The notes beneath the pieces are model-generated. The model saw only the letters and a list, made by a program, of their open reading frames with translations, did not search any database and had not been told where the DNA came from. A stretch of DNA of 44,347 bases, taken from contig JAHJGB010000077.1 in assembly GCA_018824725.1 (NCBI GenBank), positions 1 through 44,347 of the forward strand, given 5' to 3'. Below are positions 11,798 through 44,347 of the stretch, one piece after another. Positions within the stretch are counted from its first letter, which is position 1. The number at the start of each line of letters is the position of its first letter. Position numbers and translations under genes: made by a program. The DNA is from Candidatus Omnitrophota bacterium (lineage in GTDB: Bacteria > Omnitrophota > Gorgyraeia > Gorgyraeales > Gorgyraeaceae).

Positions 11798-13216
11798 ATG
11801 AAGATATTTCTCGTTAATCCTCCTCTTACGAGACAGGAAGCAGCTGGAAAGATGAAGGTAATTGTTAACCTTCTCCCTCCGTTAGGGATTGGGTATATCG
11901 CCGCGCTTCTGGAAAGAGAAGGTTTTGTTGTAAAGATAGTTGATTGCCCTCCGTTAAGCCTGACCCACGATGATTTGTGCAAGGATCTGGCGATAGAAAA
12001 GCCCGACATCATCGGTTTTACGGCTACCACCATTTCTATTGATAGCGCCATAAAAGCCGCCCGGAATGCCAGGGCTGTCCTGCCGCATTCCTTGATTATG
12101 ATAGGTGGGCCGCATGTTACGGCTTTACCTGAAGAGACAATGCGTAACGGCCCCTTTGATGTGGTAGTTTTAGGAGAAGGGGAGTATTCATTTTTAGAAA
12201 TTGCGCAACGGGTTAGAAACGCATCAAGTGATTTTTCTGGCATTAGCGGATTAATGTATAGAAAAAATGGCGAGTTAATTTCTACCGGCAGGAGGGCTTA
12301 CATAGATAATTTAGATTCTTTGCCTTTTCCCGCATTTCATTTATTTCCACCCCTATCCATATACCATCCAATGCCGGGGAATGTCAGGAAAATGCCCTAT
12401 GCTCAGATTATGACCTCTAGAGGCTGTCCTTATCAATGCACATTTTGTGACCGAAAAGTTTTTGGCCAGTTATTTCGCGCGCGTTCTCCAAAAAATGTAG
12501 TAGATGAAATAGAAATGTTGATGAAGCGGTTCGGGGTAAAAGAAGTAAAGTTTAACGATGATACCTTTAATGTGGATCCGAAGCGGGTTATAGATATTTG
12601 TGAAGAGATATTGAAGAGAAATATGAAAATCCCTTGGACGTGCCGTGTCCATGTAAAAAACCTTTCTTTCGATCTCTTAAAGATAATGAAACGAGCTGGC
12701 TGTTGGCAGATTGGATTCGGTATCGAAAACGCAGATACTGCCATATTGAAAAGAATCAAGAAATATATAACGCTGGAGGAATGCAAAGACGCTGTGCTGC
12801 GCGCAAAAGCATGCGGTATGAACGTTAAGGTATCATTTATGTTTGGCCTCCCGGGAGAAACAGAGAAGACTATCCAAAAAACAATTGATTTTGCCAAGAC
12901 GCTTCCCGCAGATATCGTTAACTTTCATATTTTTATACCTTTTCCCGGTACAGAACTTTTTAACAAAATTAGCAGTGAAGGCCTGCTTTTGCATGAAAAC
13001 TACCAGCATTATTGCCAATTAAATTTGCCAAAATATATGCACTTACCTTTTGTATCAAAGGGGTTGGGAGAAAATCAGATTCGCAAGTCTTCTTCACGGG
13101 CGCACAGATCTTTTTATCTTAGGCCGAGTTACATCTTAAGCCAGCTGTGTAAGATCAGGAACTTCTCTGACGTATATAGGTACTGGCAGGGTTTTTTAGC
13201 GATAGTCAGTTTATAA
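11798..13216 (+). CDS. B12-binding-domain-type radical SAM protein (COG1032-like), paralogue 1
   Basis: ORF 11783-13216, with ATG 11798 (MKIFLVNPP) preferred. It has PPLGIGYIAALLE and VLGEGEYSF motifs, the TSRGCPYQCTFC cluster motif and a C-terminal FYLRPSYI. Confidence 0.85.
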   Translation: MKIFLVNPPLTRQEAAGKMKVIVNLLPPLGIGYIAALLEREGFVVKIVDCPPLSLTHDDLCKDLAIEKPDIIGFTATTISIDSAIKAARNARAVLPHSLIMIGGPHVTALPEETMRNGPFDVVVLGEGEYSFLEIAQRVRNASSDFSGISGLMYRKNGELISTGRRAYIDNLDSLPFPAFHLFPPLSIYHPMPGNVRKMPYAQIMTSRGCPYQCTFCDRKVFGQLFRARSPKNVVDEIEMLMKRFGVKEVKFNDDTFNVDPKRVIDICEEILKRNMKIPWTCRVHVKNLSFDLLKIMKRAGCWQIGFGIENADTAILKRIKKYITLEECKDAVLRAKACGMNVKVSFMFGLPGETEKTIQKTIDFAKTLPADIVNFHIFIPFPGTELFNKISSEGLLLHENYQHYCQLNLPKYMHLPFVSKGLGENQIRKSSSRAHRSFYLRPSYILSQLCKIRNFSDVYRYWQGFLAIVSL

Positions 13217-13256
13217 TGGCAGCTTATTTACAGAGTGTATTCACGAAAGGATTTGT

Positions 13257-14492
13257 ATGAGAGTGATAGCACGAAGAAATATTGCTCATTATAGAGGGGA
13301 ATTGAAAGACATTCTAAGCTTAATTCTTCAACGGAGAATCAAGGAGGGGCCCTATATCAAACAATTTGAAGAGCAGTTTAGTAAATATATTGGAACCAAG
13401 TATGCTATTGCGGTAGCATCGGGTAGATTGGGTTTGTTTCTGGTACTCGATGCGTTATCGCTGAATAAGAATGATGAAGTTATGCTCCCTGCCTACACAG
13501 ATGAAAGCGTCTCGGAAGTGATTCAAAGCTTAGGCTTGGCGCCAATTTTTATAGATATTGAGAGAGATACCCACAATATCGATGCTAACTTCATTGAAGG
13601 GAAAATCAACTCCAGGACCAAAGTGATCCTGGCTACCCATATTTTCGGCCGGCCTTGTAATTTGGCAAAAATAACGGAAATAGCAAAGAAGCACAGCCTG
13701 GTTGTTATTGAAGACTGTGCCCATGCGATCGGAGCAGAATATAATGGACGGCGGGTCGGTTCATTCGGCCGAGCCGCCTATTTCAGCTTTGGGATAACCA
13801 AGCCTTTTAATACGTTCGGCGGAGGCATGATCACAACCAATGACCAGGTGTTGTATGCCCAGATTAAAAAAAAATCAGCACATTTTGATTATCCGGCTCC
13901 TGCCGCAATTTTGAAGAAGGTTCTTATTTCTTACGGTTTATTTTTGTTGACTTCACCTCCATTTTTCTTAATGATCGTTTTCCCTTGGCTCTTATTCTTG
14001 TCTTTTTTTGATAAGGATCTGATAAATATTTACAACAAGACTGTGAAACCGGCAGTCAAATCCGGGGTATCCGGGGTAAAATATACGAACATGCAGGCAT
14101 TGATGGGGATCAGGCAACTAAGCAATATCGATACGGAAAATGAAAGCCGCAGGCGCAATGCCGGCTTGCTGATGAGCCTTATCGAAGGCAAGATAGATAC
14201 GCTTAAAGACAGAGAGACTCTTCGGCCGACGTATTATTTTTTTGTGGTATTAACTCAGGACACGTCAGGCCTGGCGAAGAAGTTATTGCGTAAAGGCATA
14301 GATACGGGTAAGCATATCATGCGCGATTGTTCGGCGATCGACGGCAAGGAGAGTGACTGTGTATCTGCCTCTGAAGCGGTCAGGGTAAGCTTGCAGATCC
14401 CGAATTATCCGCGGCTAAAGCAAGAGGATATGAGGTATATAGCCGGGATTTTAACCCGGGAATGTAAGAAGACCGGTACCGGAACCAGATGA
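13257..14492 (+). CDS. DegT/DnrJ/EryC1/StrS-family PLP-dependent sugar aminotransferase or dehydratase
   Basis: FEEQFSKYIGTKYAIAVASGRLGL, EDCAHAIGAEY and FSFGITKPFNTFGGGM (PLP lysine) are colinear with the family. aaagga lies before the ATG. Confidence 0.8.
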   Translation: MRVIARRNIAHYRGELKDILSLILQRRIKEGPYIKQFEEQFSKYIGTKYAIAVASGRLGLFLVLDALSLNKNDEVMLPAYTDESVSEVIQSLGLAPIFIDIERDTHNIDANFIEGKINSRTKVILATHIFGRPCNLAKITEIAKKHSLVVIEDCAHAIGAEYNGRRVGSFGRAAYFSFGITKPFNTFGGGMITTNDQVLYAQIKKKSAHFDYPAPAAILKKVLISYGLFLLTSPPFFLMIVFPWLLFLSFFDKDLINIYNKTVKPAVKSGVSGVKYTNMQALMGIRQLSNIDTENESRRRNAGLLMSLIEGKIDTLKDRETLRPTYYFFVVLTQDTSGLAKKLLRKGIDTGKHIMRDCSAIDGKESDCVSASEAVRVSLQIPNYPRLKQEDMRYIAGILTRECKKTGTGTR

Positions 14493-15250: not shown

Positions 15251-15262
15251 GAAGATCCGATA

Positions 15263-16129
15263 TTGCAAGATCTGTATGGCAAACGAACCCCTATTGCCGG
15301 GATCTGCAAAAGGCAGCCCGGCCTATGGAACATCGTAGCGTATGAAAAGGAGTGGGATATTTATCCGGATAGTTTTGATTTTTTAAACCGCGATTCGGAT
15401 CTCTTTAAACTGAAGAGTTTTGAAAAAGAAATCTATTTTGGTTTGATGCGGCCATTTTTAAATACACTGCCTAAAGAAAGCGTTATTTTGGATGCCGGAT
15501 GCGGAATCGGAAGATTTTCTGTTGAGTTGGTAAGGAGGGGCTTTAAGGTAAATTTGGTGGATTCATCTGAAAAGGCCCTTAAAAAGGCATTAGAGTATTT
15601 AGGAAGAGAAAAAGGGGCAGAATTCGATGTCCATTGGGGCAACGTGGCTAATCTGCCAATGTTTTCTAACGCGAGCTTTGATGCCATTTTGGCAATAGAG
15701 TTGATATGTTATTGCAATAGCCCCAAAGAAGTAGTAAAGGAACTGGTGAGGGTGACAAAGAAAAACGGCCTGATCATAATTTCTGTTGAAGGAAAATACG
15801 GGGGAATGCTTTCTGATCCCAACGTTCGTTTTGATAAGTTATCCGCAATTGTTCAGGATGGTTTATTATATAAGAAAAATCACTTATATGTACATTATTA
15901 TACTCCAGCGTCGTTAAAACGATTATTAGAGGAGTGTGGAATTGACGTTATAGGCGTATTTGGCTCCCATTATGTTACCGATGGTATTTTTCAGGGGCTA
16001 ATAGATGTTGATAAACTGGACAATAAGAATTATAAAACGAGGGTCCTCAAAATCGAGAAATTATGCCAAAATGATCCCGTGCTTAAGAATTTAGCGAGGG
16101 CATGGGTGGCAGTCGGGAGAAAAAGGTAA
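15263..16129 (+). CDS. Class I SAM-dependent methyltransferase
   Basis: Motif I VILDAGCGIGRFS, an acidic post-I residue (VNLVDSS) and a later FDAILAIELI motif. The start is TTG at 15263, so the true start is uncertain. Confidence 0.8.
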   Translation: MQDLYGKRTPIAGICKRQPGLWNIVAYEKEWDIYPDSFDFLNRDSDLFKLKSFEKEIYFGLMRPFLNTLPKESVILDAGCGIGRFSVELVRRGFKVNLVDSSEKALKKALEYLGREKGAEFDVHWGNVANLPMFSNASFDAILAIELICYCNSPKEVVKELVRVTKKNGLIIISVEGKYGGMLSDPNVRFDKLSAIVQDGLLYKKNHLYVHYYTPASLKRLLEECGIDVIGVFGSHYVTDGIFQGLIDVDKLDNKNYKTRVLKIEKLCQNDPVLKNLARAWVAVGRKR

Positions 16130-16135
16130 GTACAT

Positions 16136-17665
16136 ATGAAAGTCTTTCTCATTAGGGGTCCTCGCTATTATTGGCCGTTTATAAATGAGTACGATAATTT
16201 TCTTATGCCTCAGTCTCTTGCTTGTCTGGCGGCAGTATTAAAAAGAGCCGGCATAGAGGTGAGGGTAATTGACTGCGCCCCTGTCAAGATGGGGTGGAAT
16301 AGTTTAAGGAGTTTGCTTAAAAAAGAAAATCCGGATGTCGTAGGGATTGGGGATAGTGAGTCCCTCTATTCTCATGAGGCAATGAGGGTTTTAAAGACAG
16401 CCAAAGAAGTTAACCCTAAGGTAATTACAATAGCAGGGGGGGCTCATTTTTCCAATCTTATTCAAGAGAGCTTGTCGAGTTCCCCCATTGATTTTATCGT
16501 GAAAGGAGAAGGGGAATATACTCTTTTGGAGCTGATAAAAGAACTGGAAAAACCAAAGCCTGATTTTATGAAAGTCAGAGGCATTGCTTTTAAGCAGGAT
16601 AATAAAATAATTGAAACGCCTCCGCGGCCATTGATTGAGGATTTGGATAAACTCCCCATTCCCGCATACGAACTTATGCCGATGCGCGAATATGGAAAAT
16701 CGAGATTCCTTTTCTCACCCGGGGGGGCTACTATCCATCATAGCCGGGGTTGCATTGATAGGTGTAAGTTCTGCGTCTGGTGGGTGCAGATGGCTGAGCG
16801 CAAGCTAGAGAATGGGGAAGTCAAACCGCATCCGAAATGGAGGACCAAAAGTGTCGGGCGGACCATCGAGGAAATACGCCTGCTGTACCATAAATATAAC
16901 AAGAGGTTCTTGGTCTTTGTGGATGACTCCTGGAATATCAGTCAGAGTTGGAATGAAGAATTTGCCGAAGCGTTGATCAAAGAGAACATTAAAATCGGCT
17001 GGTTCGCCTTTATGAGGGCGGATTTTATGCTTCGCGACGAAAAAGCCGGGATATTGAAAAAATTGGTCGATTCCGGGATGTCACATATATGCATCGGAGC
17101 GGAGAGGGAGAGCAACGAAGAGTTGCGAAGCATCGGTAAAAACTGCTATTCGCGGGATATGGTCAAGGAATGCCTGCTCATCCTGAAGAATAAATATCCG
17201 CAAGTTTTTAGGCAGGTTACTTTTATAGTCGGCATAAGAGGTGAAACCCGGGAATCGCTATTAAGACAGGTTAACTATGCCCAGGAGATATGCGCGGATT
17301 ATCCGGCATTCCATCCCATGACTCCCGTGCCGGGGACTGAGGCGTGGCGGGAAGCAAAGGAAAAAGGATGGTTAGAAATCAAGGATTTCAGTTATTATGA
17401 TTGGACTACTCCGGTCATGTCTTCTGGCACAAATCTTTCCAGGGAGGAAATCGAAGATCTGGTCTATTTGGCCAGCAGAAAATTCATTTCCTTCCCCTGG
17501 ATCATCAAAGGGTTATGCAGCCCCTTCAGGATTAAGAGAAATATGTATATTTGGTGGCTATTGGTAGCCGTGAAAATATTTATCGATTCATTCGGGAGAT
17601 TTGTCCTCCCGCTTAACGTAAAGGAATATACGAAGTTAGTAAAGCCAAAATGGTACGATAGCTGA
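16136..17665 (+). CDS. B12-binding-domain-type radical SAM protein, paralogue 2 (divergent)
   Basis: VKGEGEYTLLELI, VRGIAFK and HHSRGCIDRCKFC motifs, with a longer and more divergent C-terminus. Confidence 0.85.
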   Translation: MKVFLIRGPRYYWPFINEYDNFLMPQSLACLAAVLKRAGIEVRVIDCAPVKMGWNSLRSLLKKENPDVVGIGDSESLYSHEAMRVLKTAKEVNPKVITIAGGAHFSNLIQESLSSSPIDFIVKGEGEYTLLELIKELEKPKPDFMKVRGIAFKQDNKIIETPPRPLIEDLDKLPIPAYELMPMREYGKSRFLFSPGGATIHHSRGCIDRCKFCVWWVQMAERKLENGEVKPHPKWRTKSVGRTIEEIRLLYHKYNKRFLVFVDDSWNISQSWNEEFAEALIKENIKIGWFAFMRADFMLRDEKAGILKKLVDSGMSHICIGAERESNEELRSIGKNCYSRDMVKECLLILKNKYPQVFRQVTFIVGIRGETRESLLRQVNYAQEICADYPAFHPMTPVPGTEAWREAKEKGWLEIKDFSYYDWTTPVMSSGTNLSREEIEDLVYLASRKFISFPWIIKGLCSPFRIKRNMYIWWLLVAVKIFIDSFGRFVLPLNVKEYTKLVKPKWYDS

Positions 17666-17920: not shown

Positions 17921-19348
17921 ATGAGAGTATTACTTATAAATCCCCAATTTGAATTTAAGAAATTCGGCAGTTTCACCAGGTTTATGGAACCCATGCCCAG
18001 CATAGGGTTGGCTTACATCGCGTCGGTCTTGGTGAAGAACGGCATAGAGATAGAAATAATCGATGATTTTGTCTTGCGGCTAGGGGCCAAGGGTATTCTT
18101 AGCGTAATAAAAAAGAAAAAGTTCGATATTGTAGGGATATCCTGCTTGACGCCTTCAGCGCCAATAACTTTTTCTATCGCAGCGGCTATCAAAAGCTACG
18201 ACAGTAAAATCTTGATAGTCTTAGGGAATATCCATGCCGTCGTATTTGCCGGGGATATATTAAAGAAGGAAGCCGTGGATGTAATTGTCCACGGTGAGGG
18301 TGAATATACGATGTTAGAGTTGGCTAAGGCGGTAGCCAGCGGCGCAGATCTTGCGCAGGTAAAAGGAATTTCATTTAAGCAGGACGGGAAGATAGTGCAT
18401 ACGCCCCCCAGAGAGCTCATAGAAAATTTGGATGAGCTACCCTATCCGCAATGGCAATTGTTCCCGTTCACAAAATATGCGTTTCTGCCATTTATGGATG
18501 TCAAGAAGCCCGGATTAAGCATTTTGGGTTCCCGGGGTTGCCCCTATCGGTGCAGGTTTTGTTCTCTGCCCAATACGGGGACTAAATACAGAGAAAGAGA
18601 TCCAAAAAAGATCGCGGATGAAATTGAATATGTAATACATAACTTTCCGGTTAAACAGATCTCATTTGTCGACCCCATCTTTCCTTTGTCAAAGAAAGTC
18701 GGGCTGGAATTTAGCGAAGAGATGGTCAGGCGGAAGCTGCATAATAAAATTGTATGGACATGCGAGACACGGATTGACAGGATGGACAGAGAGCTCTTAA
18801 AGGCGATGCGGCAGGCCGGCTGCAGAAGGATAATGTATGGTTTGGAATCCGGAGTTCAGGCGTTATTGGATAACATTGGAAAAGGTTTCTCCGTAGATTA
18901 TGTAAAAAGGATTATCAAGCTTACCCAGCAAGAAGATATATCAGTAGCAGGCGTTTTTATGATAGGATTGCCGGGAGAAACGAGAGCTATGACGCAGCAA
19001 ACCATCGATTTCGCCAAGCAGATAGATTTGGATTTTGCAAAATTTGCCATTACCGTCCCCTTCCCGGGAAGCCAGCTTTATGAGGACTTGACCAGGACGG
19101 GAGAATTGAAAAGGCAGGATTGGGAAAACTTCACCACTTTTAATACTAACCCAAAAGAATTGGTATATGTCCCGGGAAACATGAAACCGGAAGAGCTGAT
19201 TGAAATGCAGCGGAAGGGACACAGGGATTTCTATTTACGGCCGGAAATCATCTTCCGGCAGCTATTCAAGATACGGACAATCAGCATAAAAGATTTGTTT
19301 TCCGGGTTTTTTAGCTTATTTTCGCATGGGCTTCATAAAAATAATTAA
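17921..19348 (+). CDS. B12-binding-domain-type radical SAM protein, paralogue 3
   Basis: PSIGLAYIASVL, VHGEGEYTMLEL, GSRGCPYRCRFC, GLPGET and FYLRPEII motifs. Confidence 0.85.
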   Translation: MRVLLINPQFEFKKFGSFTRFMEPMPSIGLAYIASVLVKNGIEIEIIDDFVLRLGAKGILSVIKKKKFDIVGISCLTPSAPITFSIAAAIKSYDSKILIVLGNIHAVVFAGDILKKEAVDVIVHGEGEYTMLELAKAVASGADLAQVKGISFKQDGKIVHTPPRELIENLDELPYPQWQLFPFTKYAFLPFMDVKKPGLSILGSRGCPYRCRFCSLPNTGTKYRERDPKKIADEIEYVIHNFPVKQISFVDPIFPLSKKVGLEFSEEMVRRKLHNKIVWTCETRIDRMDRELLKAMRQAGCRRIMYGLESGVQALLDNIGKGFSVDYVKRIIKLTQQEDISVAGVFMIGLPGETRAMTQQTIDFAKQIDLDFAKFAITVPFPGSQLYEDLTRTGELKRQDWENFTTFNTNPKELVYVPGNMKPEELIEMQRKGHRDFYLRPEIIFRQLFKIRTISIKDLFSGFFSLFSHGLHKNN

Positions 19349-21058: not shown

Positions 21059-22493
21059 ATGTCCAAAAAAATTCTATTGGTGAATCCAAATTTTTCATAC
21101 TGTCCCGGACTGTTTTCATCGTTCGTAAATTACAAACAGCCCCCCCCTAGGCCTGGGATACATAGCTTCGTATATCAGGGCGCGCTGCGCAGCTGAAGTT
21201 AAAATATATGACGCTGCCTTTTTGGATGCGGATGCGGACCGGACTTTAGAATATGCGAAGATGTTTAATCCAGATATTATAGGAATAAGCGTAACAACAT
21301 TGACAGCTGGATATGCCAGGAAGCTTGCGGCAAAAAGTAAAAATACGCTTAAGAATACCCTTGTAGTATTAGGAGGGCCTCATATAACTGCATTGCCATA
21401 TGAGAATTTAGATGTTGCTGACATCTGTGTAATTGGCGAGGGCGAACAGACCTTTGCCGAGTTAGTAGATAATTTCCCAGATGAATTGTCATTCGAAAAA
21501 ATTCCCGGAGTCGCTTTTAAAAAAAATGGAAAGACAGTGAAAACGAATGAAAAAAAGCTTATTCCAAACTTAGATAAACTGCCGTTTCCTGCCATGGACA
21601 TGTATTCTCAGTATAGGTATATTCATATCTATCCATATCGTTTAAAAAATACCCATTACAGGACTATTATCACTTCCCGGGGCTGCAGTTATAATTGTAG
21701 CTTTTGCATGAGTGAACTCATCTGGAAAAGAGAAGTAAGGTTCAGGAGTTTGGATAATGTTTTCCAGGAAATTGGAGAGTTAGTTGGTAAATATAAAACA
21801 TCCCTTTTATTTATACATGACGACAATTTCACAGTAAATGCTGCCAGAGTTTATGAGTTTTGCAGAACTAAAAGAAAATACTTTCCCGAGCTAAAATGGA
21901 TTTGTCATGCCCGAGCAGATTGTTTATCTTCGGAATTGCTGGCAGAAATGAAATCGGCAGGATGTGTCGAGATCCAGATTGGAGTGGAAAGCGGCGATGA
22001 TACCATTTTATCCAAATGCAATAAAGCAGTTACCACATCGACTATTATTACCGCTTTTAAGATGCTTAGGAAAAGCGGCATTAACCAATGGGCCACATTT
22101 ATCATTGGAAACGAAGGAGATGATAAAGAAAGTATATTAAAAACAATTAATTTATCTAAAATTATAAACCCCACCTACGCTACTTTTTTATTTCTTTTGC
22201 CCCTGCCGGGAACAAAATGTTTTAATCGACTATCCGAAAAAGGATTCATAACAACGTACGATTGGTCTAAATACACATGGCACGGTGAACCAGTGTTCGA
22301 GACAGAAAGCCTGTCTAGAAAAATGCTCTTGTGGATACGAAAAAAAGCGTTTCTTGAATTTTATCTACGCCCCTCTGCGCTAATTAGATGCTTATTCGAT
22401 ATCGTAAAAAGCAGACAATGGAATATGTTGTTCCGCGGATTTATGACTATTTTTAAATTTGGTTTTGGATTTATACAGAATAAACGAGCATAA
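21059..22493 (+). pseudogene. B12-binding-domain-type radical SAM paralogue 4, interrupted by a frameshift in a C8 tract
   Basis: ATG 21059 gives MSKKILLVNPNFSYCPGLFSSFVNYKQPPP. After C8 (21140-21147) the family motif PPLGLGYIASYI continues in the frame of ORF 21222-22493, and a C7 tract would fuse the two. TSRGCSYNCSFC is present downstream. Confidence 0.75.
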
Positions 22494-24559: not shown

Positions 24560-24756
24560 AGACGGGGGAATCTATTTCTCCAAAAAGGCCACAATAGTGA
24601 CCGCAGATTATCTTGTAGACAAAACAGGCCACAGGGGCATACAATGTCTCAAGAGAGAGATTTATTGAGCATAAAGATGAATTCGAGTTGATTTCTGATA
24701 TGGAGTTATACGACGGTTGCTTTGTCCGGGGAAGCAATCCTCAAAAATAATTATAA

Positions 24757-24916: not shown

Positions 24917-24955
24917 GGGTATATATTTTAAGTATAAGTATTTAAGAAAGTTTAG

Positions 24956-36685: not shown

Positions 36686-38080
36686 ATGAGATTAGCATTT
36701 GTATATCCTCCTCAGGAAGTATGCAGAATTTTTTACCCGGAGAAGATTCGTAGGCAGTATAACCGGGAAGGGGCGATATTGCCTCCTCTGGGCATTGCTT
36801 ATTTGGCGGCAATCCTGGAAAAAAAACACGTTGTCAAGATTATCGAAGCGAACGCCCTCCGCCTGAGCCTCGATGAAGTCATTGACCAGTTGAGGGATTT
36901 TAAGCCGGATGCGCTCCTGTTCAGTTTGATAACGACCGATTTCCGGCCTAATTTAGAGTGGATAAAGGCAATAAAAAAACAAATTGATGTCCCTGTTATA
37001 GTAGGAGGGCCGCAGCCGTCTATTTATCCAACCGAGACATTGACGTATGATGAGATTGATTTTTGCGTGGTGGGAGAAGGCTGGGAAACCTTGCCCGAGC
37101 TCTTGGATTGCGTAGCCGGCAAGGGCGATTATAAAAGCGTTAAAGGGATAGCGCTTAAAGAAAACGGAGAAATTGTGCTTACAGAGAAAAGGCAGGCAAA
37201 ACTGAATATTAATAACGTCCCTTTCCCTGCCCGGCATTTATTGCCGAATGAAAGCTATACTACGATTCTTTCAAAACGGCGGCCGATCACGGCTATCATG
37301 TCGAGCTCGGGATGTCCCTTTAACTGCCTGTATTGCGGGCATAGCTATGACGTTATCCTGCGGGATCCCGTGAGGGTGGTCGATGAAATGGAAGAGTGCG
37401 CGAAGAAATACGGCATAAAGGAAATTCTTTTTTACGATGAGACATTTTCACTGGATAAACACAGGGCGGCGATGATATGCGAGGAGCTCATCAAAAGGAA
37501 GCTCGATATCGCCTGTACAATAAGGACCCGGGCTGACTTAGTTGATGAATTGCTTGTAAAGCTATTTGCCAGGGCAGGCTGTATCAGGATTAGTTTCGGC
37601 ATTGAAAGCGCGGATCCTGAGGCGTTAAAATGGCTGAGAAGGAACTTGTCATTGCCGCAGATTGTCGATGCGGTCCGCTGGGCAAAGCGGGAAAAAATAG
37701 ACACCCTGGGGTTCTTTATGATTGGGTATCCGGGAGAAAGCGCGCAGGGGATCCAGAAAACAATCGCGCTGGCTAAACAGTTAGATCTCGATTACGTGCA
37801 AATTAACAAACTGGTTACGTTACCCGATACGCAGTTATATACGATGTTCAAAGAAAAGACCGGAAAAGACCTCTGGCGAGATTATGTGCTGGGAAAAGCG
37901 GATTTTGCGAGTTTCGCTCCCCTTAATTCAAAGTTGACCGTAGAGGAACTTGACATGTGGCTAAAAAAGGCTTATCGAAGCTTTTATTTCAGGCCACGCT
38001 ATATTCTTAACCGGCTTCGCAATGTAACGTCTTTTAAGGAATTTTGCGGTTTGGTCAATTCCGCTTTATCTTTACGGTGA
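36686..38080 (+). CDS. B12-binding-domain-type radical SAM protein, paralogue 7
   Basis: LPPLGIAYLAAILE, VVGEGWETLPEL, SSSGCPFNCLYC, GYPGES and FYFRPRYI motifs. Confidence 0.85.
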   Translation: MRLAFVYPPQEVCRIFYPEKIRRQYNREGAILPPLGIAYLAAILEKKHVVKIIEANALRLSLDEVIDQLRDFKPDALLFSLITTDFRPNLEWIKAIKKQIDVPVIVGGPQPSIYPTETLTYDEIDFCVVGEGWETLPELLDCVAGKGDYKSVKGIALKENGEIVLTEKRQAKLNINNVPFPARHLLPNESYTTILSKRRPITAIMSSSGCPFNCLYCGHSYDVILRDPVRVVDEMEECAKKYGIKEILFYDETFSLDKHRAAMICEELIKRKLDIACTIRTRADLVDELLVKLFARAGCIRISFGIESADPEALKWLRRNLSLPQIVDAVRWAKREKIDTLGFFMIGYPGESAQGIQKTIALAKQLDLDYVQINKLVTLPDTQLYTMFKEKTGKDLWRDYVLGKADFASFAPLNSKLTVEELDMWLKKAYRSFYFRPRYILNRLRNVTSFKEFCGLVNSALSLR

Positions 38081-38121: not shown

Positions 38122-38877
38122 ATGGCTATTTCTCTTGTAATGCCGGTCTATAATGAAGAGGGTGTAATAGAAAAAGTAGTACGGGACTGTTACGCGGAAA
38201 TTATCGCTAAAATAGAAGGTTCCGAGTTTATTATTGTCAATGATGCCAGCACGGACTCTACTCCCGAGATCCTTGAAAGGCTCGCAAAAGAATTTCCCCA
38301 AATAAAACTTCTGCGCCTAGATAAGAACAATGGGCATGGGAACGCTCTTCGCGCGGGGTTCGCGAAAGTGAGAAACCCGGTTATTTTACATATGGACAGC
38401 GACGCTCAATTCCAGGCAGGGCAGTTCTGGAAATTGTATCAAAGACTGGCAGATAGCGATATAGTTTTGGGGCTGCGCGCTTCCAGGCACGACCCGTTGC
38501 ATCGCAAGGCCATTTCATTCATAGTGCGGCTCATAAATATGGCCCTGTTCGGCTTCTTAGTGAAAGATATCAATTCTCCGTTCAAATGCATCAAGACAGG
38601 AATTTTGCAGGATATTTTAAACGATATACCTCCGAACGCTTTTGCCATTTCAATCCTCATGGTGATCATGGCCAAACATAAGGGATATCGAGTCGCCGAA
38701 GTTCCCATAATTCATTTTCCCAGGACAACCGGCAGGAGTAAGCTTGCAAGCGCGCGTTATTTATTCAAAAAATGCCTTTTTTGTTTGCTTGATATTCTGC
38801 GGGTTAAATGGAATTTATTGACTAAAAACCGCAATAGCACGGTAGGGCGCAATGAAAATTATATTAATAATCCCTAA
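38122..38877 (+). CDS. GT2 glycosyltransferase, polyprenyl-phosphate sugar synthase type (Dpm1/ArnC/GtrB-like)
   Basis: ISLVMPVYNEEGVIEKVV...FIIVNDASTDSTPEIL...NNGHGNALRAGF...MDSDAQF. It is about 250 aa with a short hydrophobic C-terminal part, the typical layout of this subgroup. Confidence 0.7.
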   Translation: MAISLVMPVYNEEGVIEKVVRDCYAEIIAKIEGSEFIIVNDASTDSTPEILERLAKEFPQIKLLRLDKNNGHGNALRAGFAKVRNPVILHMDSDAQFQAGQFWKLYQRLADSDIVLGLRASRHDPLHRKAISFIVRLINMALFGFLVKDINSPFKCIKTGILQDILNDIPPNAFAISILMVIMAKHKGYRVAEVPIIHFPRTTGRSKLASARYLFKKCLFCLLDILRVKWNLLTKNRNSTVGRNENYINNP

Positions 38878-40249
38878 CTCGGGGAAAATACCCCCTTTAA
38901 TACCGCTTGGCACTCTCTATATCGCTTCTGCTTTAAAGAAGGCGGGGGACCATCAAATAAAGATCATCGATGCGAGGGTGGGAAGGTTAAATTACAAGGA
39001 AATTTCCGGCAGTATTAAAAGCTTTTCTCCGGAACTCGTAGGCATAACCGGATTATGTATTGAGGCCCCAGAGGTTCATAAGCTTGTTCGTCTAGTAAAA
39101 CAAATAGACGCACAATACAAAGTTGTAGTTGGAGGGGCTTATGCTACCTTCTGTCGAGAGTCTATTATCGAAGATCCCAACATAGACTTCGTAGTGATAG
39201 GAGAAGGAGAAAAGGCGATATGTAATCTCGTGGATGCCCTAGAGAATGGTAAGAATATTTCCGGCATCGACGGCATTGGTTTTAAGAATGGCAGTAAAAC
39301 AACCATTAACCTCCCTGTCGCGCTTACAGAGGATATAGATTCCATACCTCTGCCTGCGTGGGGCCTCATCGACATGGAAAAATATTTCCATGGCCCGCAT
39401 AAACATTCACAAAATCCAGCTTCTGTATTCAATAGGATAGCCCCGCTCTTTACTTCCCGCGGCTGTCCATTCGGATGCATTTTTTGCCACAACATTTTTG
39501 GTAAGAAAGTAAGAGCCAGGAGCGTCCGGAATGTTGTTGAAGAGATCGAAGTTTTGATTAAGGAATATGCCGTCGAGGAGATCGAAATTATCGATGACAT
39601 TTTTAATTTTGACCTGGCTCGAGCTAAACAAATATGCGATGAGATAATCAAGCGCGGGATTAAGATCCACCTTTCTTTTCCGAACGCCCTCAGGGCTGAT
39701 ATGATGGATGAGGAGCTTATTGTTAAATTAAAGAAGGCAGGGACATATTTGATTTATTACGCCATTGATTCCGCTTCGCCGGAAGTGCAAAAGCAGATTA
39801 ACAAAAACCTCGATTTGGAAAAATCAAAAGAAGTAATTAATATGACAATCCGGCATGGGATAGCTACGGGCGGTTATTTTATGCTAGGTTTCCCGGGAGA
39901 AACCAGAGAACAGATGCGCCAGACGATCAGGTTCGCGCTGAAATCAAAGTTACACTTCGCAAGTTTCTTCTACGTAGCCTCTTTTCCGCACACAGCATTA
40001 TCTAAAAGATTAGGCAGGGATACGATAGACCAGGAAAGTTTCAACCACTCCGATGTCCTTAAGCTTACCAGGAATTTTTCTTCGGTGCCGGACTCCGAAT
40101 TTAGAAAATTGGTGTCCAGGGCGTATGGGAAATTTTATTTTCGTCCTTATCAGATGTGGCGTATATGGAAAGTGCTGCCCAACAAAATTATGGTTTTAAG
40201 GAATCTATGTATGGTTTTAGGACGTTATATCAAGGATAGATTTCATTAA
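38852..40249 (+). CDS. B12-binding-domain-type radical SAM protein, paralogue 8
   Basis: PPLIPLGTLYIASALKK, VIGEGEKAICNLV, TSRGCPFGCIFC, GFPGET and FYFRPYQM motifs. It overlaps the GT2 3' end by 26 nt. Confidence 0.85.
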   Translation: MKIILIIPNSGKIPPLIPLGTLYIASALKKAGDHQIKIIDARVGRLNYKEISGSIKSFSPELVGITGLCIEAPEVHKLVRLVKQIDAQYKVVVGGAYATFCRESIIEDPNIDFVVIGEGEKAICNLVDALENGKNISGIDGIGFKNGSKTTINLPVALTEDIDSIPLPAWGLIDMEKYFHGPHKHSQNPASVFNRIAPLFTSRGCPFGCIFCHNIFGKKVRARSVRNVVEEIEVLIKEYAVEEIEIIDDIFNFDLARAKQICDEIIKRGIKIHLSFPNALRADMMDEELIVKLKKAGTYLIYYAIDSASPEVQKQINKNLDLEKSKEVINMTIRHGIATGGYFMLGFPGETREQMRQTIRFALKSKLHFASFFYVASFPHTALSKRLGRDTIDQESFNHSDVLKLTRNFSSVPDSEFRKLVSRAYGKFYFRPYQMWRIWKVLPNKIMVLRNLCMVLGRYIKDRFH

Positions 40250-40290: not shown

Positions 40291-42642
40291 ATGACAGGGC
40301 ATAAACTTATCAGAAGCAGATATATTTGTTTGGTAGCTTTGACGCTAATATATTTATTGGTTCGATTAACGGTCTTATTCTGTTCCATAGATAAGGTACA
40401 TTTAGATGAAGAATTATATCGCGGTAATATTACTAAGGAATTGATTTCTGGGCCGGCTTTTCCATTTTTTGATTACCAAAGGAGTGAGTACGAAGGCGGT
40501 TCATTGCTAAACGGTATTTTGGCGTTGCCGTTTTTTTTGCTTTTTGGAGAGACGTTGATATCTCTCAAATTGGTAGGGTTATTGATAGGAACAAGCCTAT
40601 TCATTTTATGGTATTTATTTTTAGACAGGTTTTTCAGTAGAAGGGTAGCAATTTGGACAAGTTTACTGTTTATTCTAATGCCGCCTTTCTGGATTAAGAT
40701 CAGCATTTCTAGTTACGGCGGGCAAGACCAAATCGGCCTCTTTACCATGCTGGCGATATTGATTTTTTACCAGATATTTTTTGTAAGAAGTACAAAGGCC
40801 CTTTTTGGGTTCTTAGGAGTAGCCTGCGGTTTTGGCCTGTTCTTCCATTGCAGTTTTTTGCCGACATTATTAACTGTTATTTTATTCTGGTTTATTTTCG
40901 ATAAGAAATTCTTCCTCAGGAGCGAATTCTTTATTTTTACCATCGCTTTCTTAGTCGGTTTTGCTCCATGGATCTGGTATAATCTTACCCACAATTTTCA
41001 AGGATTGATCGTAAACGATGAACTTCTGTCTTACTGGTTTTCGCGCAATAACCCTCTTCATTTCTTTTTGAGGATCAAGGATTTTGTTACAATTGAAATC
41101 GCAAATGCTTTTAGTTTTGAAGATACTATTTTGAGATTCGAGCCTCGCGCGTTACTCGGCAATTGGTTTTTTTCCCGTATTTATTATTTTGTATTTGTGT
41201 TTTCCTTTTGCGCGCTATCGTGGCTCAACCGCCGGTCTTTGGTAAAACTCATACGAGGCATTATCCCTCTCCGAGGTTTCACGGTATCGCCTCAAGACAT
41301 ATCCAAAGAGGTATTCTTGCTTATGTTTTTTGTGATATTTGATCTCATCTTAAGCCTGTCCGGTATTAAACATAATGTAAATAATTATGAGAGTAGCGTG
41401 TGGCGTTACAGACAAGTCATGCCTGTCGGTCTTTTTGTTCCTGCGGTGATAGCCATATTCTTATACGGAAAGGGCATACAATTCAGGCGTTTTTTTATTC
41501 CCTATTTTAATTTCTGTATTATGGCGCTTTTGCTGGGATTGGGGCTGGTCTCCAGCTTTAATTTCATTTCTAAGGATTGCCTGCGCAAGGCCGCCTTATC
41601 TGGGATATACCGTGGTTACAACTATTATAATTTAGGGAGGGTGATTGCGTGGAGGTTTGACGGTTCTCCGCGATGGATCGACTCCATAAAAAGAATTAAA
41701 GACGGGGAGGCCAGGCGATATTGCTATTCCGGCATGGGCTGGGGATACGCTGAAGATAAATTTGATGCTGATTATCATTATTACCTAAGTACGGTAATAC
41801 ATAAGATCGAGAGGGATTACTGGCCGTATGCCTATGAGTGGATGGGGGAAGCATTAGAAAGGGAGCTCAAGTATGATAAATCAACAACCGCCGAATTAAA
41901 AAATTTGCTTGACCCTGAATTCATTCCTAATTTCTATACCGGTGTGGGCCGCCAGGCAGTCGCAGAGGTTTTCGGTGATCCGGAGCAGACGGTTTTGGAT
42001 TTCAGGAAAAGAATCGACAAGGAATACGAGCCTTTTTTTTATCATGGCATTGGAGTCGAGCTATTTGACGCCTTAGTTAATCAGCCGAAAAAATTCTTTA
42101 GTTTTATGAGCGCAATTGACAAAAGATTTGAACCTCAGATATATACAGGATTGGCCCAGGGAAAAGAATATTATCGGTTTCTGTATCGTGATTTTGGGTT
42201 CGGTATCGGGAAGAAGGTTGGTTATGATATCGGAAAGTGGAAATGGATTATGAGTAAGATAGGAAAAGAGTACAGGCCTTTCTGCTACGAGCGGCTGGGT
42301 ATCGAGGCAGGATGGAGGTTTATCCACGGCATAAAAAAATACAGTTCATTTTTAAGGGCGGCTGACCAGGAATATTGGCCGTATCTCTACAGGGGTTTAG
42401 GAACCGGTATTGGGTGGAGGTTTGCCTATAACATCGAGGGATGCGTAGCATTGATAAAATATGCTGATCAGGCATTTTGGCCCTATATATACGAAGGCCT
42501 GGGAGTAGGCGTGGCCAGGAGATATGCCTATCAGAAAGATGCATGGGCAAAAGGTGCCAGGTATATACCCGGGGATTACCGGCCTTATTTTGACGCAGGT
42601 ATAAAAAATGATTTTGACCGCAGGTATGGAGGACACGATTAG
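40291..42642 (+). CDS. GT-C-like polytopic membrane protein with a C-terminal 34-residue repeat array (paralogue C)
   Basis: 783 aa. First-loop motif is LDEELYRGNITKELI (40405-40446). The TM core is colinear with 29033 and 32359. About 10 repeats lie at 41607-42620, and the last three are spaced exactly 34 aa apart. Confidence 0.7.
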   Translation: MTGHKLIRSRYICLVALTLIYLLVRLTVLFCSIDKVHLDEELYRGNITKELISGPAFPFFDYQRSEYEGGSLLNGILALPFFLLFGETLISLKLVGLLIGTSLFILWYLFLDRFFSRRVAIWTSLLFILMPPFWIKISISSYGGQDQIGLFTMLAILIFYQIFFVRSTKALFGFLGVACGFGLFFHCSFLPTLLTVILFWFIFDKKFFLRSEFFIFTIAFLVGFAPWIWYNLTHNFQGLIVNDELLSYWFSRNNPLHFFLRIKDFVTIEIANAFSFEDTILRFEPRALLGNWFFSRIYYFVFVFSFCALSWLNRRSLVKLIRGIIPLRGFTVSPQDISKEVFLLMFFVIFDLILSLSGIKHNVNNYESSVWRYRQVMPVGLFVPAVIAIFLYGKGIQFRRFFIPYFNFCIMALLLGLGLVSSFNFISKDCLRKAALSGIYRGYNYYNLGRVIAWRFDGSPRWIDSIKRIKDGEARRYCYSGMGWGYAEDKFDADYHYYLSTVIHKIERDYWPYAYEWMGEALERELKYDKSTTAELKNLLDPEFIPNFYTGVGRQAVAEVFGDPEQTVLDFRKRIDKEYEPFFYHGIGVELFDALVNQPKKFFSFMSAIDKRFEPQIYTGLAQGKEYYRFLYRDFGFGIGKKVGYDIGKWKWIMSKIGKEYRPFCYERLGIEAGWRFIHGIKKYSSFLRAADQEYWPYLYRGLGTGIGWRFAYNIEGCVALIKYADQAFWPYIYEGLGVGVARRYAYQKDAWAKGARYIPGDYRPYFDAGIKNDFDRRYGGHD

Positions 42643-43752
42643 ATGCGGATAGCAGTTGTTGGCGCAGGATTATCGGGCTGTACAATCGCGCGGCTCCTTA
42701 AAGACAGGGGGCACGATATTACCATTTTTGAGAAAGAGAAAAGGATAGGCGGTCTTTGTGCGACCGCCACCCATAGAGGCCGGCCTTATCAATTATTTGG
42801 CCCTCATAATTTTCATACCCACAACGAGTCTGTTATTAAGTTTCTCTGCAGATTTAGCGCATTCAATAATTATGTCCATCGCGTGGGAACGTTTGTCGAT
42901 GGCAAGGTTTTACCATATCCGATTAGCTATAAGACGATAGACATACTAGAGGAAAGAGACTATATATTAAAAGAACTTGCGCATCTTCCTAAGAAGGTTA
43001 ATATGGCAAACTTCGAAAGCTGTGTTGTCTCGATGGTCGGAAAGACCTTATATAAAAAATTTATCGAAAACTATACTCTGAAGTTTTGGAGAATATCTCC
43101 GAAGAAGATGGGAGCAGAATGGGCGCCCGAGAAGATAGAGATCAGGCGCGATGACAGTTTGGGATATTTCGGGGACGAATGGCAGGGCCTGCCGACACAG
43201 GGCTATACGCATATGTTCGAAAAAATTATAGAGGGTATACCGATTCATTACGATGTAGAAATAAAGGATTATCGGGACCTGAGGCATGATTTGGTCATAT
43301 CTACCATTCCGATAGACGAGCTGTTCAGCTTTTGCTATGGCCGATTGGCTTATAGAGGGCTCGATTTTGTCATACATTTCAAAGAAACAGAATGGGAAGA
43401 CGTCAAATACGGCTGCATAAATTTTCCTGAAAGAGATGTTGCTTATACGAGAAAGAGCAATTACAGCTTGTGCTATTACAATGGCCCGCTGAGTTCCTAT
43501 ATTGTTGGCTATGAATTTCCCGGCAATGCAAGCAGGATGTATCCTATTTATACTTCTCAAAATAAAAAACTTTTCAATAAATATCTAACGCATTTGATAA
43601 TGGTAAAAAATCTTATAAGTGTTGGAAGATTGGGACTTTTTCGCTATTACGATATGGACAAAACAGTAGAATGGTGCCTCGATAATATCGATATGGTGGA
43701 AAATTACCCGTCTTTAACCCCCGCGGAGAGGATACAATGGCTGTCTCTGTGA
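42643..43752 (+). CDS. glf: UDP-galactopyranose mutase
   Basis: N-terminal FAD fold IAVVGAGLSGCTIARLL..ITIFEKEKRIGG. It is colinear with Glf through FGPHNFHT, YTLKFW, WQGLPTQGYT, LAYRGLDF, VAYTRKSNY, MYPIYTSQN and VGRLGLFRYYDMD. ggagga lies before the ATG. Confidence 0.85.
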   Translation: MRIAVVGAGLSGCTIARLLKDRGHDITIFEKEKRIGGLCATATHRGRPYQLFGPHNFHTHNESVIKFLCRFSAFNNYVHRVGTFVDGKVLPYPISYKTIDILEERDYILKELAHLPKKVNMANFESCVVSMVGKTLYKKFIENYTLKFWRISPKKMGAEWAPEKIEIRRDDSLGYFGDEWQGLPTQGYTHMFEKIIEGIPIHYDVEIKDYRDLRHDLVISTIPIDELFSFCYGRLAYRGLDFVIHFKETEWEDVKYGCINFPERDVAYTRKSNYSLCYYNGPLSSYIVGYEFPGNASRMYPIYTSQNKKLFNKYLTHLIMVKNLISVGRLGLFRYYDMDKTVEWCLDNIDMVENYPSLTPAERIQWLSL

Positions 43753-44347
43753 CCATTAAGGCCATACGGCACCATTTCAGAAATTCTGTTGCCGTTGCGC
43801 TCATTACAATATCGGCGATTTTGTTTTATTTGCCGCTTTTTAGAGATCTAAGTCATGGCATTCCCTGCGTGGATTGGTGCGGGATATATCCTTATATTGA
43901 CTTTTTTAGAATATCCATTATCAAATATCATCAGTTTCCCTTACGAATCCCTCATTTTTGCGGAGGTTACCCCTCTATAGGTTTTCCCTATGACATATCC
44001 TTAAGCCCCTTAATGCTGATTGTCCTGGCGTTTGGAGCCATAGAAGGGACTAAGATCACCATCTTTTTAATGGCTTTATGCGGCGCCTTAAGCGTATTTT
44101 ATTTAACCCGCTACCAGCTTCGCTATAATCTGGCGGGCTCCCTTTTTTCTACGCTGGCTTTTCTTTTCTGCAGCTGGGGGCCTTGTCAATACCTGGAATC
44201 AAACTATGAGAAGTTATACTTTTATTTCCTGCCTTTGCTGGTAGTTCTTCTTATAAAATCCACACAAAATAAAAAGTTTATATTTTTTGCATCTGTGGCC
44301 TTAGGTATCGTAGTCGTATCTGCCGGCAGCATTTTTATACCCATTGC
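43737..44347 (+). CDS. Polytopic membrane protein, 5' partial (runs off the window)
   Basis: ATG 43737 overlaps the glf stop. I translated an open frame by hand to the window end (MAVSVTIKAIRHHFRNSVAVALITISAILFYLP...) with several hydrophobic spans. It is not in the supplied ORF track, presumably because it has no stop. Confidence 0.6.
   Translation, partial: MAVSVTIKAIRHHFRNSVAVALITISAILFYLPLFRDLSHGIPCVDWCGIYPYIDFFRISIIKYHQFPLRIPHFCGGYPSIGFPYDISLSPLMLIVLAFGAIEGTKITIFLMALCGALSVFYLTRYQLRYNLAGSLFSTLAFLFCSWGPCQYLESNYEKLYFYFLPLLVVLLIKSTQNKKFIFFASVALGIVVVSAGSIFIPI

Follow-up and report, generated by a model that had tools for sequence, protein, structure and literature searches.

A candidate Gtr/Arn-like glycosylation cluster with radical SAM auxiliaries in Omnitrophota-like bacteria

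What would a bacterium make with ten radical S-adenosylmethionine (SAM) domains lodged among genes for lipid-linked glycosylation? This question is raised by contig JAHJGB010000077.1 of a Candidatus Omnitrophota bacterium (assembly GCA_018824725.1), whose 44,347 nucleotides constitute the window analysed here. From position 11798 onwards it carries eight B12-binding radical SAM genes (r1 to r8), a gene joining a glycosyltransferase family 2 (GT2) domain, a membrane segment and a radical SAM/SPASM domain (the fusion) and a small Cys-rich radical SAM gene (rS), that is ten radical SAM domains. These are accompanied by a DegT gene, two methyltransferase genes (MT1 and MT2), an ArnC/DPM1-like GT2 (GT2b), five genes for polytopic proteins (M1 to M5), an SGNH-TPR gene, Glf and the remnant of an IS30 insertion sequence (Table 1). 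Our results here argue, with moderate confidence, for extracytoplasmic glycosylation in an Omnitrophota-like bacterium by a Gtr/Arn-like system of several cassettes, in which the sugar donors would be tailored by radical SAM enzymes.

An earlier note on this DNA had described a locus on one strand from 11798 to the window end. This is indeed the case, the credible genes being all on the + strand; over the whole window, Pfam scans place every open reading frame (ORF) of at least 100 residues with a family match on that strand. The genes are closely packed, with overlaps of 23 nt for r3/M1, 4 nt for r6/M2, M2/rS and M3/SGNH-TPR, 26 nt for GT2b/r8 and 16 nt for Glf/M5. DegT, the two class I methyltransferases, the GT2 at 38122, the SGNH protein with its TPR array and Glf, all listed in that note, were likewise recovered with Pfam and NCBIfam models.

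The association of radical SAM with glycosylation genes is conserved in related genomes. Orthologues of the right half of the locus (29033 to the end; M2, rS, M3, SGNH-TPR, r7, GT2b, r8, M4, Glf and M5 were compared) are found in four independent metagenomic contigs, L096 to L099, at 33-84% identity and in shuffled order. The closest syntenic contig, L096, belongs to a Candidatus Omnitrophica metagenome-assembled genome (MAG; GCA_026387235.1, JAPLMD010000026.1), L097 to an ENA assembly, and L098 and L099 come from JGI metagenomes. A more distant fifth contig, L100, was reached via a 32%-identical relative of M4 and displays, in this order, a B12-binding radical SAM gene, two SGNH-TPR genes, a GT-C gene, two B12-binding radical SAM genes, a GT2 of 238 residues and four further polytopic genes; it is the only one in which a Wza-like (Poly_export) gene adjoins the cluster. 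B12-binding radical SAM genes, a GT2 of ~235-250 residues, GT-C paralogues and SGNH-TPR are common to all five, a small radical SAM gene (~320-340 residues) is present in four (not in L100) and Glf in three (L096, L097 and L099). As the same repertoire recurs in five independent contigs, the linkage that the earlier note proposed to check by synteny reflects neither an assembly chimera nor random accretion. On the other hand, its 32 kb do not form one conserved unit: only the part from 29033 to the end is conserved as a set. The envelope glycoconjugate that it inferred is in part favoured by gene content, by the ArnC-like GT2b, by the GT-C fold described below and by linkage, and not by conservation of the locus as a whole.

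Conservation extends to the arrangement of neighbours. Orthologues of r8 (56-67% identity) lie directly 3′ of the GT2b orthologue (48-74% identity in L096-L099) in L096, L097 and L098, so that the GT2b-r8 pair is conserved, and the order r7-GT2b-r8 is preserved in L098. Those of rS (53-61%) adjoin GT-C genes in L096-L099. In the related loci, most GT-C-like genes have a radical SAM gene as immediate neighbour, and in the window such pairs overlap or lie within 41 nt. Triads composed of a B12-binding radical SAM gene, a small GT2 and a GT-C gene recur; more generally, small GT2, B12-binding or small radical SAM, and GT-C genes come back in adjoining, often overlapping cassettes. The other members of the set show orthologues at 83% (L098), 67% (L099) and 62% (L096) identity for r7; 81% (L096) and 70% (L097) for SGNH-TPR, with the same architecture in L098-L100; 33-53% in L096-L099 for M2; 82% (L096) and 71% (L097) for M3; 60-77% in L096, L097 and L099 for Glf; and, by tblastn, 83-84% in L096/L097 and 54-55% in L098/L099 for M5. 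In L096 and L097 the cluster extends beyond the point matching the window end. L096 also carries, at 8835-10019, an extra MiaB-like gene (UPF0004 + Radical_SAM) directly 5′ of its M4 orthologue and overlapping it, a third radical SAM class recruited to a GT-C gene.

The earlier note regarded the five polytopic proteins as GT-C-like, that is as members of the membrane glycosyltransferases that would use lipid-linked donors. M2, M3 and M4 are 32-37% identical to each other, their PMT_2 matches are sub-threshold and none of them scores above cut-off with curated GT-C family models. The M4 family comprises 772 representatives at E <=1e-10 among 1.84 billion, many of them with a precomputed PF13231 (PMT_2) annotation, and the closest named homologue, 74% identical and from Candidatus Omnitrophica, is annotated as GT39. 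An AlphaFold model of M4 built from 28 homologues has a mean predicted local distance difference test score (pLDDT) of 85.7. Its Foldseek matches among membrane proteins are all GT-C enzymes (Pmt4, ArnT, ALG9, ALG12, AglB, PglB and STT3), each with a probability of 1.00 and, on the target, with TM-scores that reach 0.52. A glutamate, E41, is invariant in the family and sits between predicted helices 1 and 2. Thus, M4 is predicted from its model to carry the GT-C fold, and M2 and M3 appear by sequence to be its paralogues. The GT-C proposal therefore holds for these three; for M1, BLAST finds weakly similar proteins that bear PMT_2 in L003 and L097, and M5, of which the window contains the beginning, is assigned through its polytopic orthologues.

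The C-terminal part of M4 (41590-42642, residues ~430-783) consists of approximately nine tandem repeats of ~35 residues each, with the pattern D.EY(R/W)P..Y.G(L/I)G..(I)GWRF, and the C-termini of M2 and M3 are built likewise. In the model this domain is an all-helical solenoid, which matches generic solenoids (importins, PPR) alone and no Pfam family.

Which enzymes could provide these proteins with donors? The best PDB matches of GT2b are ArnC (E 1e-17), DPMS and GtrB, over residues 3-214, which correspond to the whole catalytic domain. Among NCBIfam models it comes nearest to ArnC, dolichyl-P hexose transferase and PpgS, without reaching any cut-off (ArnC 65 vs 529), and it lacks the C-terminal transmembrane helices of GtrB and ArnC.

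A second GT2 domain belongs to the fusion, in the public annotation of which the gene begins at 25493 and encodes 685 residues. The AlphaFold2 model (pLDDT 85) gives Foldseek matches with CteB and SuiB and with GT2 enzymes including PcManGT. In L096 and L097 the counterpart of the fusion consists of two adjoining genes, of 348 and 363 residues, ~30% identical to its two halves. A fusion in one genome and split GT2 and radical SAM genes in others connect a membrane GT2 to a radical SAM protein in the Rosetta-stone sense. Relatives of the fusion at 39% identity or more number only 8 among 5.8 billion proteins. Their neighbourhoods are not syntenic with the window, one relative (P0003) being solitary on a 6.2-Mb contig; the fusion is consequently no marker of the cluster and was rejected as such. 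Fusion relatives of 49-64% identity (L003, 9228-10670; L005, 14418-15851; and the JGI locus of P0004) lie outside B12-binding radical SAM clusters. In three of four contexts of fusion relatives, an amine-oxidase/phytoene-desaturase-like flavoprotein of 470-480 residues is encoded next to them or nearby, which suggests a separate conserved two-gene module.

Two radical SAM domains of the SPASM/twitch type had been announced besides the B12-binding ones. The fusion possesses such a domain, with a PF13186 score of 25.1 bits vs a cut-off of 21.5. The case of rS is partial: the radical SAM domain is confirmed and Pfam detects no SPASM domain, the likeness residing in a Cys-rich C-terminus with nine cysteines.

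Our attention then turns to r1-r8, the most numerous family of the locus. Seven intact genes of common architecture and one frameshifted copy were expected, and this is what Pfam and the alignment reveal. All eight score above cut-off with both PF02310 (43.7-82 bits vs 32.1) and PF04055 (43.5-94 bits vs 29.5), the domain matches of the frameshifted r4 being found in the ORF at 21222. CxxxCxxC is invariant, a PPLG..YIA motif and GEGE or near variants are shared, and a C-terminal (F/Y)(Y/L)RP is present in most. PF02310 followed by PF04055, together with CxxxCxxC, places the eight proteins by sequence among the predicted class B (cobalamin-type) radical SAM enzymes. For r1, the ORF opens with GTG at 11783, and the ATG at 11798 agrees with the N-termini of the paralogues. 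Pairwise identity amounts to merely 24-34%, indicating old paralogues rather than recent duplicates. A further B12-binding/radical SAM fragment, claimed at 24757, was not recovered: with tblastn and Pfam, neither a paralogue nor a family resembles it significantly.

The defect of r4 is due to a C8 run at 21140-21147, close to its 5′ end, that contains one C too many; deletion of one C restores an intact frame of 477 residues from 21059, with PPLGLGYIA. This run is the sole G or C run of at least eight in the 44 kb, for 0.04 expected for C. It could represent a homopolymer sequencing error or, alternatively, a slipped-strand phase-variation switch, as in surface-glycan genes of other bacteria.

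None of the eight reaches the cut-off of a curated NCBIfam family, the top scores being 145-241 bits for cut-offs of 251-775. The families compared were HpnJ, BchE, HpnR, PhpK, BzaD, QCMT, AprD4, TsrM, KedN5, TIGR04072 ‘ladderane’ and the C-methyltransferases of RiPPs, peptides made on the ribosome and modified after translation. HpnJ and BchE are the top matches (145-241 bits vs 481-578), HpnJ ranking first for r1, r4 and r6 and second for r3. With such scores (145-241 vs 578) the window proteins are not HpnJ orthologues. AprD4, named an aminoglycoside-pathway diol-dehydratase, scores 41-118 bits vs 500. By these scores, none of the paralogues belongs to a family of known function. Among PDB sequences, r3 is best matched by AprD4 (E 3e-27) and by the glutamine C-methyltransferase QCMT (9CCB); its homologues reach 74% identity, the closest named ones (71% and 68%) being from Candidatus Omnitrophota. 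An exact-sequence look-up of r7 returned no identical protein on record.

Relatives of r3 give a broader picture. Of 42 metagenome loci with r3 or r1 relatives, each no shorter than 9 kb, 20 contain two or more B12-binding radical SAM genes, 17 a GT2 homologue and 11 an rS-like radical SAM gene, these being raw counts without background control. A search of genome contigs with r3 yielded 7 loci. On the JGI contig L008 (1-15813), nine B12-binding radical SAM genes stand in succession, of which three share 52-56% identity with r3; U32-family and LPG_synthase_TM proteins are also encoded, and no glycosyltransferase in the 17 kb seen. Locus L007 includes, at 2016-3842, a radical SAM/SPASM gene with an intein (PF14890, precomputed annotation).

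Table 1. Positions and assignments of the features of the locus (window coordinates)
Feature	Position	Strand	Assignment
r1	11798..13216	+	B12-binding radical SAM; PF02310 82 bits, PF04055 90 bits; top NCBIfam HpnJ, 241 vs cut-off 578
DegT	13257..14492	+	DegT/DnrJ/EryC1-type pyridoxal phosphate sugar aminotransferase; PF01041 248 bits in two stretches
MT1	15263..16129	+	class I SAM methyltransferase; PF08241, PF13649; in conserved MT1-r2-r3 module
r2	16136..17665	+	B12-binding radical SAM (Pfam); conserved partner of r3
r3	17921..19348	+	B12-binding radical SAM (Pfam); most widely conserved paralogue
M1	19326..21023	+	~11 transmembrane helices; putative divergent GT-C; G+C fraction at third codon positions (GC3) 0.27
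r4	21059..22493	+	B12-binding radical SAM; +1 frameshift in C8 tract 21140-21147
r5	22496..23908	+	B12-binding radical SAM (Pfam); top NCBIfam TIGR04072, 167 bits vs cut-off 360
MT2	23945..24559	+	class I SAM methyltransferase; PF13489, PF08241; GC3 0.27
IS30 remnant	24560..25447	.	degraded IS30-family transposase; NF033563 54 bits (C-terminal) + 19 bits (N-terminal), different frames
fusion	25448..27550	+	GT2 (GT-A fold), then membrane helices, then radical SAM + SPASM (Pfam)
r6	27570..29036	+	B12-binding radical SAM (Pfam); 4-nt overlap with M2 start; GC3 0.31
M2	29033..31339	+	GT-C-like polytopic; C-terminal helical repeat domain; weak PMT_2 match; 37% identity to M4
rS	31336..32355	+	small radical SAM, PF04055 92 bits; Cys-rich C-terminus, SPASM/twitch-like
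M3	32359..34239	+	GT-C-like polytopic; weak PMT_2 match
SGNH-TPR	34236..36575	+	SGNH/GDSL hydrolase or acyltransferase domain (PF13472), long TPR array, N-terminal membrane anchor
r7	36686..38080	+	B12-binding radical SAM (Pfam); belongs to conserved core
GT2b	38122..38877	+	small GT2, nearest polyprenyl-phosphate sugar synthases
r8	38852..40249	+	B12-binding radical SAM (Pfam); 26-nt overlap with GT2b
M4	40291..42642	+	predicted GT-C-fold glycosyltransferase; C-terminal helical repeat domain ~330 residues
Glf	42643..43752	+	UDP-galactopyranose mutase-like flavoenzyme; PF03275 131 bits; TIGR00031 210 vs cut-off 304
M5	43737..44347	+	N-terminal 203 residues of polytopic protein, ended by window edge

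Do the radical SAM proteins act on the lipid rather than on the sugar? They might methylate, cyclise or cross-link the hydrocarbon chains of a lipid or polyprenyl carrier, the GT2 and GT-C enzymes merely adding head-group sugars. HpnP/HpnR, GrsA/B and Tes/Mss are models for radical SAM action on hydrocarbon chains. Lipid enzymes do figure among the NCBIfam matches, namely HpnJ, HpnR, TIGR04072 (‘lipid biosynthesis B12-binding/radical SAM’) and, for the radical SAM part of the fusion, Tes; L008, with its nine B12-binding radical SAM genes, LPG_synthase_TM and U32 proteins and no glycosyltransferase, as well as the AMP-binding and acyltransferase genes of L003, go in the same direction. So do the antiSMASH ‘ladderane’ clusters reported in Omnitrophota MAGs and in other phyla without ladderane lipids (PMC9902471). 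However, the scores remain far below cut-offs, and membership of the ladderane-type lipid family was rejected on this ground (TIGR04072 at most 167 vs 360). Moreover, the window and L096-L100 are devoid of fatty-acid, isoprenoid, squalene-hopene cyclase and glycerol-ether genes, no fatty-acid, polyketide, nonribosomal peptide synthetase or isoprenoid gene occurs among the scanned proteins of the window, and the radical SAM genes pair with an ArnC-like GT2 and GT-C genes, not with lipid-synthesis genes. We therefore consider action on the lipid unlikely. A hopanoid hpn cluster was also discarded, as the window contains no squalene-hopene cyclase, HpnH, HpnG or HpnK and the HpnJ and HpnH scores stay under cut-off.

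Maturation of a ribosomal peptide or surface protein by the radical SAM enzymes, in the manner of the polytheonamide-type C-methylations of PoyB/C, followed by glycosylation by PMT/TMTC-like GT-C proteins, seems to us very improbable. The structurally nearest proteins to the radical SAM half of the fusion are the peptide maturases CteB and SuiB, and the RiPP radical SAM families ApyD and rSAM_ocin_1 appear among the NCBIfam matches. In addition, the order of a GT-C domain and then helical repeats is reminiscent of the eukaryotic TMTC protein O-mannosyltransferases. Yet SPASM domains are not peptide-specific, the RiPP scores are far below cut-off (ApyD at most 191 vs 750, rSAM_ocin_1 at most 128 vs 282), and neither the window nor the five related loci contain a RiPP recognition element, a leader peptidase or an ABC exporter. 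In the gaps inspected, no small ORF stood out as a likely precursor. This agrees with the earlier note, which saw no obvious RiPP precursor: a screen of the ORFs listed in the two largest gaps revealed no obvious one, other small ORFs being outside this screen. Membership of a RiPP cluster was rejected for these reasons, although a precursor could be cryptic.

The left half of the locus raises a different question, that of its unity. There, close orthologues in other loci exist for just r2 (51-73% identity) and r3 (46-68%). For the remaining left-half genes the related loci offer nothing above 42% identity, and r1, r4, r5, M1, MT2 and DegT lack close counterparts. Orthologues of r2 stand beside or near that of r3 in L007, L009, L011, L016, L018 and L028, and MT1 orthologues of 38-39% identity adjoin r2 in L011 and L018. 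GC3 varies from 0.27 (M1, MT2) and 0.31 (r6) to 0.51 (r2, r3, rS, r7), most other genes being at 0.45-0.52. The low values of M1, MT2 and r6 suggest separate, more recent acquisition, and M1 was probably acquired. The scar of an insertion sequence noticed at 24560-25447 is indeed an IS30 remnant, matched by NF033563 in two frames, and it divides this variable left part from the right part.

Accordingly, the locus could be a hypervariable surface-glycan island, a mosaic of separately acquired modules (r1-DegT; MT1-r2-r3; M1-r4-r5-MT2; the right-hand conserved core) leading to several products, some of them decaying. The GC3 spread of 0.27-0.51, the IS30 remnant, the frameshifted gene, the low identity of the left-half genes other than r2 and r3, the existence of MT1-r2-r3 on its own in a Deltaproteobacteria MAG and the gene order shuffled between the window and L096-L099 are all in keeping with such a mosaic. 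A preprint also reports glycosyltransferases for lipopolysaccharide and capsule among the cargo of Omnitrophota hypervariable loci. Against this, four contigs keep the ten genes of the right half together, and all genes of the locus point the same way, with tight spacing or overlaps. Module by module, a mosaic is compatible with the glycosylation system proposed here, as it disputes the single product alone. As an account of the whole locus we hold it to be unlikely; for the left half, which with the IS30 remnant looks like the mosaic typical of surface-glycan loci, it is partly true.

From what is directly observed (domain identities, the GT-C fold of the M4 model, conservation of the gene set, the GT2/radical SAM/GT-C adjacencies and the GT2-radical SAM fusion), we infer substrates, order of steps, radical SAM chemistry and acceptor for the Gtr/Arn-like system as follows. 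Cytoplasmic enzymes would supply sugar donors, UDP-galactofuranose via Glf and amino sugars via DegT. GT2b and the corresponding domain of the fusion, as small ArnC/DPM1-like GT2 enzymes, would load sugars on polyprenyl phosphate at the inner membrane face. The soluble B12-binding radical SAM proteins and the small SPASM-type ones would tailor the sugar, either nucleotide-linked or, more likely, already lipid-linked, by C-methylation, deoxygenation, epimerisation or ring rearrangement. After flipping, transfer of the modified sugars to an envelope acceptor, which might be a glycan, a glycolipid or a protein, would fall to the GT-C paralogues M1-M5, each equipped with a periplasmic domain of helical repeats, and SGNH-TPR would add or remove O-acyl groups. 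Gene adjacency and one fusion suggest that the radical SAM enzymes have sugars, and not lipid or protein, as their substrates. The GT2-membrane-radical SAM fusion, the tight groups GT2b/r8/M4 and r6/M2/rS/M3 and the precedent of HpnI-HpnJ speak for a substrate sugar that is lipid-linked or membrane-proximal, and sugar-acting enzymes, HpnJ and AprD4, are included among the best-scoring characterised relatives of the B12-binding proteins.

These properties echo several known systems. In the three-component systems, exemplified by GtrB/GtrA/GtrC-type O-antigen modification and by the pentofuranose systems of Citrobacter youngae, a GT2 couples a sugar to polyprenyl phosphate, the loaded lipid is flipped, and a GT-C enzyme hands the sugar on in the periplasm. 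Some of them possess an auxiliary enzyme, such as the ORF13 epimerase, by which the lipid-linked donor is altered before the GT-C step; DprE1/E2 is another precedent for such tailoring (PMC11127046). As in those, the window combines a small GT2 close to polyprenyl-phosphate sugar synthases with GT-C-fold transferases bearing an extra periplasmic domain. It differs by the absence of a flippase gene, by five GT-C paralogues per locus rather than one, and by auxiliaries that are radical SAM proteins (eight B12-binding, two SPASM-like), of which we found no report. The Arn pathway (ArnB/ArnC/ArnD/ArnEF/ArnT) offers a DegT protein with an ArnB-like match, an ArnC-like GT2 and ArnT-like GT-C folds as points in common, and ArnD likewise tailors a lipid-linked donor sugar. 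It shares with the mycobacterial decaprenyl-P-arabinose route (DprE1/E2 + Emb/Aft) the logic of a donor tailored on polyprenyl phosphate and then used by several GT-C enzymes. However, the NCBIfam scores are far below equivalog cut-offs, no homologue of ArnA, ArnD, ArnE/F or DprE was detected in the window, and the candidate tailoring enzymes there are radical SAM proteins.

In the hopanoid system HpnI (GT2)/HpnK/HpnJ, as in the proposed one, a GT2 and a B12-domain radical SAM protein would act in turn on a lipid-anchored sugar; HpnJ has been proposed to contract the glucosamine ring on bacteriohopanetetrol, a hopanoid glycolipid. The low scores and the missing cyclase and hpn genes mentioned above separate the window from it. 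AprD4, GenK/GenD1 and MoeK5 methylate or deoxygenate sugar carbons. They are B12-domain radical SAM enzymes of antibiotic pathways (PMC12931638), similar in domain architecture to those of the window, AprD4 being moreover the best sequence match of r3 among solved structures. They serve soluble aminoglycosides or phosphoglycolipids in actinomycete secondary metabolism, with one or two per cluster and without GT-C. A classical Wzx/Wzy- or ABC-dependent O-antigen or capsule locus was considered and rejected, there being no initiating transferase, Wzx/Wzy/Wzz or ABC exporter in the window. The earlier note knew of no characterised pathway with this gene content; our literature search yielded no product for such loci and found no description of GT-C loci rich in B12-binding radical SAM genes.

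A bolder formulation would make the cobalamin-type and SPASM-type radical SAM enzymes a fourth, hitherto overlooked component of polyprenyl-phosphate/GT-C systems, rewriting lipid-linked sugars at unactivated carbons before export (by C-methylation, deoxygenation or ring contraction), so that the cassettes would give Omnitrophota-like bacteria an envelope of unseen sugars. We advance this tentatively, as a possibility and with less confidence than the glycosylation system itself.

Several observations weigh against the system that we favour. No flippase (GtrA, SMR, MATE or Wzx), initiating phosphoglycosyl transferase, polymerase or exporter was detected in the window, a negative that for the flippase covers the window only, as the cluster continues past its end; a candidate EamA gene occurs in the syntenic locus L098 only. 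Concerning the membrane proteins, the Foldseek E-values of the M4 matches are modest (7e-3 to 0.2), a sequence profile of M2-M4 retrieved no GT-C enzyme among PDB sequences, just a spurious ARIH2 match, and M1 has no Pfam or NCBIfam match even at E = 10. The MT1-r2-r3 module has no glycosylation genes nearby in L011, which is the Deltaproteobacteria MAG, and the r3 orthologue stands alone in L010. The B12-binding proteins score about equally with BchE, a porphyrin enzyme, and with P-methyltransferases, which renders the link to sugar chemistry weak, and no radical SAM enzyme acting on a polyprenyl-phosphate sugar was found in the literature. Finally, cobalamin use by r1-r8 is a prediction, and AprD4, the closest solved relative of r3 and of the same fold as its family, is reported not to bind cobalamin (PMC12931638).

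Some other features of the window deserve mention. Upstream of the locus, bases 63-10358 encode ordinary bacterial functions (UvrD-type helicase, major facilitator superfamily transporter, tRNA-Ala, LeuRS, MA peptidase and ComEC). Between ComEC and r1, after a gap of 323 nt and before one of 63 nt, an ORF of 345 residues (10682-11719) lies 3′ of the promoter-like site (10645-10673) that ranks best on the + strand in this region. It contains an HCCGN motif, has no Pfam or NCBIfam match even at E = 10 and no homologue in the related loci, and may be the first gene of the operon. A lysine-rich ORF of 81 residues (15005-15250) follows a 512-nt gap and ends 12 nt 5′ of MT1; no family could be assigned to it at E = 10, apart from a faint match to HVO_A0114 (E 0.034), and it may be a small DNA-binding regulator, or else not a gene. 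In DegT, whose best NCBIfam matches are of the PseC, LegC and ArnB types, all under cut-off, a strongly hydrophobic insert at residues ~215-252, LISYGLFLLTSPPFFLMIVFPWLLFLSFF, interrupts the Pfam match; a membrane-associated hairpin would be unusual for this family of soluble enzymes. An Rfam scan of the window detected a single tRNA and no cobalamin or SAM riboswitch, and promoter and terminator scans were uninformative, with counts near the shuffled expectation.

Omnitrophota are presented (PMC10066038) as a phylum with no isolates and with an unexplored envelope chemistry. The locus described here is a real, hitherto uncharacterised cluster conserved in Omnitrophota-like bacteria, and its probable role is to decorate the cell envelope with unusually modified sugars. 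Its novelty lies in Gtr/Arn-like lipid-linked glycosylation with radical SAM auxiliaries, conserved in an uncultured lineage. It may also be, although this is speculation, that the ‘ladderane-like’ calls of genome mining in Omnitrophota and other phyla include such arrays of B12-binding radical SAM genes. If radical SAM enzymes do act on lipid-linked sugars, both the substrates of class B radical SAM enzymes and the three-component systems would be widened. The conserved, compact and testable triads of small GT2, B12-binding radical SAM and GT-C enzymes could reveal new radical chemistry on sugars, and the locus as a whole a new route to the diversification of surface glycans.

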